Assembly (NCBI GenBank): GCA_016931955.1
Contig: JAFGDV010000002.1
Span: forward strand, 38,545 to 102,544
Length of the DNA: 64,000 bases
Reading direction: 5' to 3'
Source of the DNA: Candidatus Altiarchaeota archaeon
GTDB taxonomy: Archaea; Altiarchaeota; Altiarchaeia; IMC4; QMZM01
A program made the position numbers and the translations under genes. The notes beneath the pieces are model-generated. The model was not told where the DNA came from. It saw only the letters and a program-made list of their open reading frames with translations, and made no database searches. Below, in pieces: positions 60,255-64,000 of this stretch. Positions within the stretch are counted from its first letter, which is position 1; every line of letters starts with the position of its first letter.

Positions 60255-61529
60255 CTAACACCTCAGCCTATCAAATAACTGCCTCAAGGTGTCCTCATCA
60301 GATTCAGTGAAAGAAAAAGGTGGCTCGACGAATTTCTTCAACGGCAACGGCACATTATCCAACCTATAGATAGTGCCACTAGACTCCATTCCAGCCACGA
60401 CACCTGGGAGAACAACATCACTAAACAATGCTGTGGGACATTGAGATACGTTAACTGATACAATAGGAATCCCCTTCATAAAGCGGACAACATCCCTCGG
60501 CATATGGGCTACCAGATCCGCCGCCACGATAAGCATAGCATCCACCTCCCCCCTCCGCAGAAGATCGACCGTCGTATATTCCCCCGGATTGTATCTAGGA
60601 TACCCCCTGCTATAGTCTACCCCAAACGGGTAACCTGACGCTGAAGTCATTGCCTGGATGAAACCTGAAACGTTCCCATGCCCCAGATTAGGGATTATGA
60701 CAAATCTTGTGAACCTGTTAAGGTCTCTCACCAACTTCATCAATCGTTCGAGGTTCCTGTATTTCCCAAGAGAGCTGGCAAGACCCAATCCGATGAAGAC
60801 CGCACCGAATTCACAGTTCTTCATCAAGTCAGCCAGCTCATAGATGGTTTCTCTTCCTACACCTGCAACATCCCCTCCCACATCATTCCCCTTCAGTATC
60901 GCCATAACGGCAGACATCAGCTCATAGTCTTTGTTGGGATCCACCTGAACGTGCAGGTCAGCGATTTCTGCAGTCTTCGTCTTCCTCGGATCAACGACCA
61001 CAAGCTTTCTGTCCCTTCTCCCGCCTTTCCTGAAACGACCCTCTGGGAACAGGGAATATCTGCTGAGGTGTCTCAGATGCGACTGTAGGGGATTAGCGCC
61101 CCAGAAGACAACCAGATCAGCCCTGTTCCTGACCTCTCCGAGGGTCGAGGAAGGCATGCCAGCCTCTTGGATACCCATTATCATAGGCCCCTCGCACAAA
61201 GTTGGGTGACTGTCTACAACGCCGCCCAGGTATTCTGCGATCCTTATTCCCTGACGCATGGTCTCGGTTGACGTTACAGAGCCGATGAATATGAGAGGAT
61301 GCTCCGCATTCTTCAGGATTTTAGCAGCCTTATCCAGCGCCTGATCCCAATCAACGTGAACACCACCTACCAGCGGCTCCTTTATCCTGTCCTCGTTGGT
61401 GAGTTCCTGGAACCTCGCTCTTCCGAGAGCGCACGCGTTTTTTACCTTGATTTCTCCACCCACAAGCCCCACTTCTATGTCGTCACATACCGCGCCACAG
61501 ACGCAGCAGACCACGTTCCTGTGTTTCAT
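60255..61529 (-). CDS. fwdB: Formylmethanofuran dehydrogenase subunit B (divergent active-site residues)
   Basis: CCVCGAVCDD cluster, TLGEVRNRADLVVFWG, GYPFGVDYSRGYPRYNPGE. Confidence 0.92.
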   Translation of the reverse strand: MKHRNVVCCVCGAVCDDIEVGLVGGEIKVKNACALGRARFQELTNEDRIKEPLVGGVHVDWDQALDKAAKILKNAEHPLIFIGSVTSTETMRQGIRIAEYLGGVVDSHPTLCEGPMIMGIQEAGMPSSTLGEVRNRADLVVFWGANPLQSHLRHLSRYSLFPEGRFRKGGRRDRKLVVVDPRKTKTAEIADLHVQVDPNKDYELMSAVMAILKGNDVGGDVAGVGRETIYELADLMKNCEFGAVFIGLGLASSLGKYRNLERLMKLVRDLNRFTRFVIIPNLGHGNVSGFIQAMTSASGYPFGVDYSRGYPRYNPGEYTTVDLLRRGEVDAMLIVAADLVAHMPRDVVRFMKGIPIVSVNVSQCPTALFSDVVLPGVVAGMESSGTIYRLDNVPLPLKKFVEPPFSFTESDEDTLRQLFDRLRC

Positions 61530-61891
61530 CGTCTGATCAGCTCCACTAGATCCAAGACATCCTCCTCAGTTCCCTCTACCTCAGCCCCCATGCCTTTATA
61601 GAAGGGCGAACCTGTCTCAAATGTGTTGGAGCTTATCACCGTGTTAGCCCAAGGCCCCCGAGGCATGAACACATGACCTTCCCTGATTCCTTTATCCTGT
61701 CGAGCATAGACCACGACTTCCCCACAGTCTGTGGAAACCTTTACCTTCCTTGGATCAGACAATCGCCTCAAATCAGCCGAGTTCATGAAGCAGACTGCGG
61801 CCTTTTCTTTATACTCCTCAGTCATCTTTTTGCCGCCCTTGGCCGCAATACCCTGGTCCAATGTGGATCCTGTATTCAGTACAAACTTCAT
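61526..61891 (-). CDS. fwdD: Formylmethanofuran dehydrogenase subunit D
   Basis: LNTGSTLDQG, VFMPRGPWAN, GSPFYKG; start reassigned to ATG 61891. Confidence 0.9.
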   Translation of the reverse strand: MKFVLNTGSTLDQGIAAKGGKKMTEEYKEKAAVCFMNSADLRRLSDPRKVKVSTDCGEVVVYARQDKGIREGHVFMPRGPWANTVISSNTFETGSPFYKGMGAEVEGTEEDVLDLVELIRR

Positions 61892-61892
61892 T

Positions 61893-62666
61893 CTAATCCC
61901 GCACATACAATCTGCCTCTGCCGCATTCAGCCAGATCACCTTCGTACCCTATAAAAGCCCCGCTTAAACCCTTGACCCCATCAACCCTGCCCCTCTCCTT
62001 GAAGCTTGGCAGCATTTCTTTTATCCCCCCTTCAACGATTATTATTCCATCGATCATCCCGGCTCCGACGCGCAGACCAGCGTTCCCGGAGATGATGAGG
62101 ACTCCGCCTTTCATTCCAACGCCTGCGAACTCGCCGGAGTCCCCTCCAACCGTTATCCTACCAGCCCCCATGTTGCCCCCAAGGTTATGGCCTGCATTGC
62201 CTTTGATCTCTATCTCTCCCTCAGTCATCCCACAACCCCTCCCACGATAAGCCGCCCCAAAAAAGTTGCCGGCATCGCCTTCTATGGTGATCCTGCCCCC
62301 AGACATCTCCATGCCCGCCCACGAGCCAACACTTCCAGAAACCCTTATTTCTCCGCCACTCATCCTAGAACCCAGATGCATTCCAGCATCCCCTTCGATG
62401 ATAACCTCGCCTGCGCTCATCCTCTCCCCTATCCTCTTCACCTTCGAGGCATCACCTCTGATTACGATCCTCAAGTCCTCAGGTTTTTCCGACGCCTCTC
62501 CTCCAACGGTGAAGTACTCCCCCAGCTTCTTTTTTTTGTTTCCAACAAAAACATCCAATGCCCTGATCTCTTTCAGTGATTTTTCGGCGAACATGTCGGG
62601 TGAGATGTTCTCTGCTTCCATCCCAATCCCTGGAATTGCCTTGGGTTTCAGCCTTATCTCTTTCAT
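61893..62666 (-). CDS. fwdC: Formylmethanofuran dehydrogenase subunit C
   Basis: EAENISPD; GXGXG beta-helix repeats (GDAGMHLG, GSWAGMEM, GMKGG). Confidence 0.93.
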   Translation of the reverse strand: MKEIRLKPKAIPGIGMEAENISPDMFAEKSLKEIRALDVFVGNKKKKLGEYFTVGGEASEKPEDLRIVIRGDASKVKRIGERMSAGEVIIEGDAGMHLGSRMSGGEIRVSGSVGSWAGMEMSGGRITIEGDAGNFFGAAYRGRGCGMTEGEIEIKGNAGHNLGGNMGAGRITVGGDSGEFAGVGMKGGVLIISGNAGLRVGAGMIDGIIIVEGGIKEMLPSFKERGRVDGVKGLSGAFIGYEGDLAECGRGRLYVRD

Positions 62667-64000
62667 TTCGTATCCAGTTCAACGCCGTTTCGTATATACG
62701 CTGACTCAACTATGTAGTTTTCAGGCTCTATTGTATAGTACCTGAATCTTTCCAGGATATCCTCTTTGATGTCCTTTTCAGTCCTTGTCTTAACCCAGAA
62801 GGTTCTTCCATTGATTTCCCGAACAACCCTCCCGTCTTTAACAACAATGTCGCCGTTCTTTATCGTATACGCTGCTGAGCTGAATGCCTCCTCGATCTTC
62901 TCTCCCTCAGTCTCCTCGGGGCTTATGTCGTAGACCGCTAGATTGGCTTCATCGCCTATGGAGAGGGACGCTCTTAAATCAAGCCTCTTGGCCGGACCTG
63001 CTCGAGTCATCACCACAATCTCCTCCAGTGAAAGCTCCCTATCCAAGGAAGGTAGGGTTGTCCTCTCCAAAGCCCATCTATGGCATTCCCCCAGCACCTT
63101 GTCCCTATAGCGCTTGTCCATGAGCCATGCTATTATCCTCGGATAATAGATGAACGGCGCCGCATTGGGATGGTCTGTGGTCAGGTAGACCCTCCAGGGA
63201 TCCTTGACATGGAGGGCCAGTTCCAGGCCGATCGCCCACTGCACCGCGTTTACGCCAGAGCTCTTCCTGTACGTGTAAGGCGTTACACCCCCTCCTGATT
63301 CGTTTTCGACATCAGCGTTACTCCACTTCATCCCAGTGAGCTGTGATAGATGGTATTCGAAGGGTGCGTCCGCCGTTATCGTCGTTGTTTCGCCGAAGAC
63401 TACCTGCCCCATATCCACCGTAATCTCCGCTCTCCTGTTTACTTCCTTTGCGACCTTCTCCGCCTCCGAGCAGAAGTCCTTCCAAGAATCCCCACCGTAT
63501 GAGCTGAATTGTGCATGCGTTATATGCATGGGTCCCATCCTCATAGATTCCAGGGTTGTTTCATAGTTCCCTGGATTCCCCAAGTTGTTCAGGTGTATGT
63601 GCAGTGGATGAGGCAGCCTTAAAGTGGCACAACCTTGGATTAAGCCGGATATTATCTCCTTGGGCGTGACATTGTAGCAAGGAACCTCATCATCCAATGA
63701 ATTGATGTACTTATTCCATCCCCATGCGAAAACCCCCCCAGGGTTTACCGCCTTCACTCCATATGTTTTGGTTGCATTGAGCATGTATGAGATCCAGGAA
63801 TTCAAGGACTCCTGGTCTTCCTCTGCCACGTATTCTATAACCTGGTGATTGTTCCCTAGTAGGAGGAGACCTGATTTATCCAACATCGGCGTTTCGTTGA
63901 ATTCCTCATGGGTGTGCCTTGACTTCATGGGCGGCACCGCCGGTTCATTCGCCAGTGTGTATCCCATCCTAGCGTATAGGTAACCCGTCAGATGCGTTGT
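62663..64000 (-). CDS. fwdA: Formylmethanofuran dehydrogenase subunit A (5' end outside the window)
   Basis: Frame stays open to the window edge (GYLYARMGYT); GVKAVNPGG, HIHLNNLG, HITHAQF, TTDHPN. Confidence 0.93.
   Translation of the reverse strand, partial: TTHLTGYLYARMGYTLANEPAVPPMKSRHTHEEFNETPMLDKSGLLLLGNNHQVIEYVAEEDQESLNSWISYMLNATKTYGVKAVNPGGVFAWGWNKYINSLDDEVPCYNVTPKEIISGLIQGCATLRLPHPLHIHLNNLGNPGNYETTLESMRMGPMHITHAQFSSYGGDSWKDFCSEAEKVAKEVNRRAEITVDMGQVVFGETTTITADAPFEYHLSQLTGMKWSNADVENESGGGVTPYTYRKSSGVNAVQWAIGLELALHVKDPWRVYLTTDHPNAAPFIYYPRIIAWLMDKRYRDKVLGECHRWALERTTLPSLDRELSLEEIVVMTRAGPAKRLDLRASLSIGDEANLAVYDISPEETEGEKIEEAFSSAAYTIKNGDIVVKDGRVVREINGRTFWVKTRTEKDIKEDILERFRYYTIEPENYIVESAYIRNGVELDTK

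Follow-up and report, generated by a model that had tools for sequence, protein, structure and literature searches.

The final gene of a compact operon in Candidatus Altiarchaeota archaeon encodes a formylmethanofuran dehydrogenase B subunit (FwdB) in which the metal-ligating cysteine is retained and both of the other catalytically important residues, a histidine and an arginine, are replaced, and we tentatively propose that this subunit, together with its partner FwdD, may no longer carry out CO2/formate redox catalysis, and that the complex may be Fhc-like, acting through an intact FwdA. The gene lies on the minus strand at positions 60255–61529 of a 64,000-nucleotide stretch of DNA (assembly GCA_016931955.1, contig JAFGDV010000002.1, 38,545–102,544), which we refer to as the window. 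Its 424-residue product, P0001, matches TIGR03129 with 545.5 bits (cut-off 327.8), and its best match among solved structures is the Mo-type 9SW6_J (E 7.8e-148). Comparative analysis places P0001 in the Mo-type FmdB lineage of Altiarchaeota and identifies it as the B subunit of an FwdACDB complex of the formylmethanofuran dehydrogenase type, encoded by four genes. Archaeal CO2 fixation begins with formylmethanofuran dehydrogenase, which also serves as a model for catalysts of CO2 reduction, and the roles of the second-sphere histidine and arginine are central to the unresolved mechanism of formate dehydrogenases (FDHs) and Fwd enzymes.

In the arrangement that we propose, FwdB and FwdD would probably be without Mo/W-pterin, or poorly supplied with it, and would serve mainly as a structural (perhaps Fe-S) partner of FwdA and FwdC. 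The binuclear-metal amidohydrolase FwdA would interconvert formyl-methanofuran and formate plus methanofuran, as in the bacterial Fhc complex, at the end of an oxidative tetrahydromethanopterin (H4MPT) route running from Fae-Hps through methylene-H4MPT, Mch and Ftr to formyl-methanofuran and formate. Such a route would dispose of formaldehyde or supply one-carbon units in an archaeon no longer fixing CO2 by the Wood-Ljungdahl pathway, and the enzyme would be an archaeal Fwd that has taken the first steps from Fwd towards Fhc. An inactive enzyme would provide an archaeal intermediate on a path so far inferred from its bacterial end-point only, and would illustrate how an organism dismantling the Wood-Ljungdahl pathway recycles the parts.

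Active-site residues and descent of the window's FwdB

P0001 was aligned residue by residue to FwdB of M. wolfeii (5T5I_B), to the Mo-type 9SW6_J and to 9SFI_Q. The catalytically important residues of FwdB are Cys118, His119 and Arg288 (PMC6926001); in FDHs the arginine is the binding site of formate, CO2 and azide, and the histidine gates the formate channel (PMC10385643, PMC11656701). The metal-ligand segment of P0001 (H108-P-T-L-C112-E113; 61191–61208, minus strand, codons checked) aligns with Cys118-His119 of 5T5I_B and reads tlCEGP in place of svCHGP. Cys112 (codon 61194–61196) occupies the position of the W/Mo ligand Cys118, and Glu113 (codon 61191–61193) that of the catalytic His119, with its gating or proton-relay role, which is histidine throughout both sets of canonical sequences compared (101/101 and 41/41); His108-Pro109 is new and specific to the clade described below. 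In the substrate-pocket segment (L282-G-H-G285-N-V-S288-G-F-I291-Q-A-M294 and onward to S298; 60636–60686, minus strand, codons checked) PMRGHYN has become PNLGHGN, with Leu282 (60684–60686) at the position of the formate/CO2-binding Arg288, again without exception arginine in the canonical sets (101/101 and 41/41), and correlated changes around Leu282 turn polar residues into hydrophobic or small ones. The substitution of both catalytic residues by chemically unlike ones counts in favour of lost redox catalysis.

Two further family-invariant positions are altered. Leu152 (61074–61076, minus strand) replaces the proline of the HPRH motif, so that HAHPRH reads QSHLRH; proline is present in 101/101 canonical sequences, and leucine is found in eight of the nine database members of the variant clade as well as in several independent lineages lacking the arginine. 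Arg39 (61413–61415, minus strand) replaces a lysine (101/101 and 41/41 canonical sequences), is confined within the clade to P0001 and its relative P0002, and recurs in other active-site variants. Together, K39R, H113E, P152L and R282L make up the departures of P0001 from 64 family-invariant positions defined in 41 diverse canonical proteins. All 23 shared fold positions are kept, as is the four-cysteine [4Fe-4S] motif (Cys8, Cys11, Cys15 and Cys33; 61431–61508, minus strand), whose cysteines are invariant in all nine analysed database members of the clade and in canonical sequences. An original prediction, made from the DNA alone and set against the methanogen motifs CHGP, PMRGHYN and HAHPRH, had called attention to the changes within these three motifs; the motifs are all correct, and alignment to the structures confirms both the window's CEGP, PNLGHGN and QSHLRH and the retention of the metal ligand and N-terminal cysteines. 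Its assertion that the protein differs from canonical Fwd is likewise borne out, since P0001 is unlike every structurally characterised Fwd/Fmd B subunit at the positions of His119 and Arg288.

Homologues were drawn from a collection of 5.8 billion proteins, and 49 genomes of the same order were compared. P0002 (84% identity; from another data source) has motifs identical to those of P0001. Seven more proteins (P0003–P0008 and P0010; 57–69% identity) retain the Cys-His pair and have leucine or phenylalanine in place of the arginine, and the remaining database matches are canonical except for Methanosarcinales paralogues without the cysteine ligand and/or the adjacent histidine. Among the 49 genomes Arg→Leu occurs only in G004 (68% identity) and His→Glu in none. 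The ten Altiarchaeota sequences, including the G004 copy, are monophyletic (SH-aLRT 99) and have Arg→Leu/Phe in common; they form the sister group of canonical Altiarchaeota Mo-type FmdB. The stem of the clade is short, at 0.09 substitutions per site, and that of the His→Glu pair P0001/P0002 is longer, at 0.33. A clade signature spans the two active-site segments (H108, P109, L152, L282, G285, S288, L/I291, M294 and S298). These relationships show the order of events, with Arg→Leu first and then His→Glu and Lys39→Arg in the window's sub-lineage.

The substitutions could in principle be assembly or sequencing errors, or belong to a decaying gene that is out of selection. We consider this very improbable and have rejected it: nothing beyond the origin of the sequence in a metagenome-assembled genome (MAG) speaks for it, and it is contradicted by the intact open reading frame (ORF) of 424 residues coupled to fwdD, by the identical motifs of the independent P0002, and by the restriction of change to four of the 64 invariant positions.

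Operon, one-carbon genes and cofactor supply

The operon is closely packed in the order fwdA-fwdC-fwdD-fwdB, all on the minus strand. The pterin-capping subunit gene fwdD (61526–61891; NF042908, 99.9 bits; PF01568) probably starts at Met17 of the listed ORF, the residue from which both 9SFI_S and 5T5I_D align, and its stop overlaps the start of fwdB, which is translationally coupled to it. Upstream lie fwdC (61893–62666; TIGR03122, 249 bits, cut-off 130.65) and fwdA (62663–64000), which is partial at the end of the window; the whole gene encodes 548 residues, reaches window-equivalent position 64309, and as a complete ORF (L087:708–2354) scores 730.9 bits against TIGR03121. Its metal-site residues (HxH, Lys, His, His and Asp) align with those of 5T5I_A and are intact, a point in favour of an Fhc-like activity. 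No ftr gene is present within the window's fwd operon. A NikR-like regulator is divergent and upstream of fwdA (L087:2418–2843), just past the window end, and an MntR/DtxR-like regulator and feoB lie downstream of the operon.

The canonical proteins (M. wolfeii 5T5I, Mo-type 9SW6 and M. hungatei 7BKB) resemble P0001 in their TIGR03129 membership, length, domain order, four-cysteine motif and cysteine ligand, and in having FwdA, FwdC and FwdD partners in one operon; besides the four substitutions, P0001 differs in an operon without polyferredoxin or Hdr genes, and its host, unlike theirs, has no Mcr, acetyl-CoA synthase (ACS) or detectable molybdenum cofactor (Moco) biosynthesis. Hdr and polyferredoxin genes are found inside the fwd operons of relatives, and we count their absence from the window's operon in favour of the proposal. 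The same-genus genome G001, which has a canonical B subunit, is arranged fwdA-fwdC-hdrA-polyferredoxin-hdrC-hdrB-fwdD-fwdB; G014 and G018, with canonical FmdB-type proteins, have HdrA(+MvhD)-polyferredoxin-HdrC-HdrB-FwdD-u219-NTPase-FwdB and a convergent, intact FdhD; and the Arg→Leu relatives G004 and contig L096 have HdrA2-polyferredoxin-HdrC-HdrB-FwdD-FwdB followed by a ModE-N-like gene, u129, u212, an NTPase and Ftr. This comparison indicates that Arg→Leu took place in a background that had ACS and the Hdr wiring. His→Glu and K39R are seen where ACS and the Hdr link have been lost and cofactor supply is undetectable, and Arg→Leu and His→Glu are two successive events in different genomic contexts.

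The genome that contains the window (G000) is an Altiarchaeota-like MAG of 1.55 Mb and 92% completeness. P0001 is its sole FwdB and its sole PF00384 (molybdopterin-oxidoreductase-family) protein, and there is therefore no FDH; the second, canonical fwdB for which the original prediction had left room was not found in G000 by TIGR03129 and PF00384 searches. McrA was not found in G000 either, nor was CdhC, which accompanies FwdB in 13 relatives, G004 and G001 among them. In G001 the genes run MoaE-MobB-CdhA-CdhC-CooC-CdhD-CdhE-AcsV-Mch, and the syntenic site in G000, in the middle of a 114-kb contig, has a sodium/solute symporter and a weak MobA-like gene (in which the LAGG motif is LLGK) followed by CdhD, CdhE, an AcsV-like corrinoid activator and an Mch-like gene (C23:72413–80064; L193:2413–10064; outside the window). 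G000 has lost MoaE, MobB, CdhA, CdhC and CooC; this is a real deletion and supports the proposal. With CdhD, CdhE and AcsV kept and CdhA and CdhC lost, G000 therefore retains the corrinoid/methyltransferase half of the acetyl-CoA decarbonylase/synthase without its carbon monoxide dehydrogenase/ACS half.

Genes for the oxidative route are present, and are a further point for the proposal: two Ftr genes elsewhere in the genome, the Mch-like gene, and a bifunctional Fae-Hps (592 bits; C37:24428–25609; L190:1498–2679), which indicates ribulose monophosphate-type pentose synthesis feeding formaldehyde into the H4MPT pathway. An apparently regular Mvh-Hdr cluster lies before the window start (C5:25957–34137; L182:11958–20000) and comprises HypF, an HdrA2-like protein with a fused MvhD domain, VhuG/MvhG, a VhuA/MvhA-like large subunit, HdrC and HdrB.

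Cofactor supply is the other part of the genomic evidence in favour of lost catalysis. None of six Moco-biosynthesis markers (among them MoaA, MoeA_N, MoaC, MoaE and MoCF_biosynth) was detected in G000, and when every ORF of the relatives' Moco clusters was used as a query, the Moco-pathway ORFs had no convincing counterpart there, the matches being only weak similarities to radical S-adenosylmethionine proteins or generic ATP-binding-cassette ATPases, and non-Moco flanking genes. No ModA/WtpA-type Mo/W transporter was found in G000; weak SBP_bac_11 matches were considered and rejected, as they correspond to two PstS proteins and a phosphonate/iron-type system. G018 and G001 have strong ModA/WtpA genes adjoining Moco genes or the canonical fwdB. 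Because ACS has been lost and cofactor-synthesis genes were not detected, the usual CO2 fixation by this enzyme is probably gone.

An FdhD equivalog is encoded about 17 kb before the window start (C5:21228–21905; L182:7229–7906), divergent from a gene for an oxalate/formate-family (SfMCT-like) transporter of the major facilitator superfamily. A 17-residue deletion removes its conserved Cys-bearing loop and GRHNALDK is changed to SRRNSLYK, both of which count for the proposal. We had considered the survival of FdhD as proof of cofactor retention, dropped this after finding the loop deletion and altered hallmark motif, and regard the gene as ambiguous; the essentiality of FdhD cysteines is disputed (PMC6239281).

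Two gene associations were noted in passing. In G018 (contig C8; L178) a NikR homologue heads a run of MoaA, a WtpA-like gene, a permease, an ATPase, MoaC, one further gene and MoeA; its G000 counterpart (67% identity) adjoins fwdA, and the region downstream is without such a Moco cluster. A module of u129 and u212 (no family match), a THEP1-like NTPase and Ftr is present at L096:11676–14124, at L023:7661–10111 and at G000 C8:377–2786 (L183), in G000 on a contig other than the window's, and in canonical relatives (L025) a u219-NTPase pair lies between fwdD and fwdB. In three Altiarchaeota lineages the u129/u212/NTPase module accompanies fwdB, and it may act in maturation or assembly.

A proposed loss of catalysis and a possible rebuilt active site

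A close precedent for the proposed complex is the Fhc complex of Methylorubrum extorquens (6S6Y; PMC6926001), in which the A subunit releases formate from the formyl-furan carrier by hydrolysis, in a host whose H4MPT pathway is oxidative and does not serve CO2 fixation. FhcB is, like P0001, an FwdB homologue without the catalytic histidine and arginine. Unlike P0001 it has also lost the cysteine ligand (Ser62), the Fe-S domain and the FwdD cap, and loops fill its pterin site (PMC6926001), so that the separation from cofactor-less FhcB drawn by the original prediction stands. Similarity of 6S6Y_B to P0001 is partial (E 1.4e-8), with the alignment starting at P0001 residue 56. Fhc further includes the Ftr homologue FhcD, whereas the P0001 operon is without ftr; the Arg→Leu relatives carry ftr in the fwdDB operon.

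Several observations weigh against the proposal that FwdB and FwdD have given up redox catalysis. Along with the cysteine ligand, the four Fe-S cysteines and FwdD, P0001 leaves 60 of the 64 invariant positions unchanged, and it keeps six of eight positions that never vary in canonical proteins and that Cys-less FwdB-like proteins usually lose (21% kept in those proteins). The clade signature is constant despite divergence to 57% identity, on branches of ordinary length; P0001 and P0002 share every clade-specific substitution and, at 16% divergence, differ in only two of 119 highly conserved columns (84 and 404). The pattern looks like remodelling under selection, not decay. G004 has ACS, FwdA and an Hdr-FwdDB-Ftr operon, and its Arg→Leu protein is its sole FwdB, on which its Wood-Ljungdahl pathway appears to depend; Arg→Leu alone therefore seems compatible with function. 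A lack of Moco genes carries little weight in MAGs: they lie close together, which means that one missing contig could hide all of them, and five of 13 canonical-FwdB relatives also show none of the three Moco markers tested, a distribution too patchy to decide whether Moco genes track FwdB type across relatives. FdhD-like and MobA-like genes, moreover, survive in G000.

Many of these points would fit an enzyme that has been re-tuned and is still active, which we regard as a possible reading. FwdB and FwdD would then bind a Mo/W-bis-pyranopterin guanine dinucleotide and interconvert CO2 and formate in a rebuilt hydrophobic pocket (Leu282, Ile291, Leu152 and Met294), with His108 and/or Glu113 relaying protons. 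Without the cationic arginine, and with an anionic glutamate beside the ligand, formate would bind poorly, and the site might be biased towards CO2 reduction, with formate quickly released into the tunnel leading to FwdA, or a slower rate might be tolerated. The short stem of the clade, the G004 operon (HdrA2-polyferredoxin-HdrCB-FwdDB-Ftr), the MvhAG-HdrABC cluster with HypF in G000, and the lack of large indels relative to 5T5I_B such as could fill the pterin cavity are all in keeping with this, but it has to accommodate a genome in which cofactor-biosynthesis and Mo/W-uptake genes were not found and MoaE and MobB are deleted from the syntenic site, an operon with no polyferredoxin or Hdr partner, and an FdhD without its Cys loop. 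It must also explain the loss of both catalytic residues, when no characterised FDH-type enzyme works without the arginine (PMC10385643). That the Altiarchaeota clade comprises functional Mo/W-pterin enzymes reducing CO2 (or turning over another small molecule) without the arginine, and in the window's sub-lineage also without the gating histidine, by means of His108 and/or Glu113, seems to us less likely than not. Were it so, these proteins would be nature's own test of the disputed FDH/Fwd mechanism, in which the arginine is regarded as the universal formate/CO2-binding residue, and would show which residues can be dispensed with or what sets directionality.

A remodelled Mo/W-pterin site could alternatively act on a substrate other than CO2 or formate, or be a pure electron-transfer centre. 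Nitrate reductase offers a precedent, as the same two second-sphere positions set specificity in the Cys-ligated fold with a Mo-bis-pyranopterin guanine dinucleotide: the positions equivalent to the FDH arginine and histidine are threonine and methionine in periplasmic nitrate reductases, and R. capsulatus FDH with H387M/R587T and one added arginine gained nitrate-reductase activity (PMC10385643). The FwdB family has also seen at least six separate losses of the arginine with retention of the cysteine, among them that of a deep paralogue family whose operon has fwdB-, fwdD- and fwdA-like genes of its own. P0001, however, has glutamate and leucine rather than methionine and threonine, nothing ties the window's operon to nitrate, and its neighbourhood yields no candidate substrate; the fwdACDB operon with its intact FwdA, and the co-transcription with Ftr in relatives, tie the protein to formyl-methanofuran chemistry, and the problem of cofactor supply is the same. 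We consider new chemistry improbable. The original prediction had offered altered substrate, altered directionality or a non-catalytic subunit as outcomes; genomic context favours the non-catalytic or non-CO2-fixing one, and conservation makes an active, re-tuned site nearly as probable. As conservation and genome context point in different directions and absence from a MAG is weak evidence, an Fhc-like complex is our tentative preference, a re-tuned enzyme comes close behind, and a new substrate is much less probable.

FwdB-like variants in other lineages

We surveyed the family with 150 representatives of FwdB clusters formed at 50% identity and a tree of these. Many of the FwdB-like proteins surveyed have non-canonical sites. 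At the positions considered here, Lys, Cys, His, Pro, Arg and His are unchanged in canonical orthologues from Bathyarchaeia, Asgard archaea and Methanospirillum, and the substitutions of P0001 are absent from canonical FwdB in methanogens, Bathyarchaeia and Asgard archaea. We therefore reject the view that such variants are common in normal Fwd where canonical orthologues are concerned; in uncharacterised FwdB-like clusters, variant sites are often seen. A deep clade (support 99) consists of paralogues that lack the arginine and retain the cysteine, from Baldrarchaeia, Promethearchaeota, Thermoprotei and Methanosarcinaceae MAGs, and at least five further independent losses of the arginine are found inside the canonical clade. 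Loss of the arginine is repeatedly accompanied by K39R, His→Gln/Glu and P152L.

Members of the deep family (P0131, P0161, P0248 and others) share with P0001 the cysteine ligand, the Fe-S cysteines and the missing arginine, often with K39R and P152L and often with glutamine at the position where P0001 has glutamate. They differ in having long branches, in usually being a second copy beside a canonical FwdB, and in having their own divergent FwdA; in a Promethearchaeota operon (L077, 222–3563) FwdB-like and FwdD-like genes stand with a divergent FwdA-like gene. P0001 is nested in canonical Mo-type FmdB and is the sole copy, and the branch between the two groups has a support of 99; by their positions in the tree the window's clade and the deep family have separate origins. 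A literature search found no paper describing such FwdB variants, and the named members of the deep family are annotated as FwdB or hypothetical protein. The family survey shows that the annotation FwdB hides several independent active-site variants, which matters when the Wood-Ljungdahl pathway is inferred from MAGs.

Isolated substitutions of the arginine occur in other lineages of the Altiarchaeota order, as methionine in G022 (L008) and as threonine in P0121, each in an otherwise canonical Mo-type FmdB. The FmdB paralogues of Methanosarcina (P0114 and P0119; motifs GN...LRS) resemble P0001 in K39R, in a changed histidine (Asn/Gln) and in being otherwise well conserved; unlike P0001 they have lost the cysteine, retain the arginine, and occur in methanogens alongside canonical copies. 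Their site is another independent kind of active-site variant, and in Methanosarcina and relatives (P0102, P0103, P0106–P0108, P0114 and P0119) the ligand cysteine is glycine, the histidine is asparagine or glutamine, and the arginine is kept.

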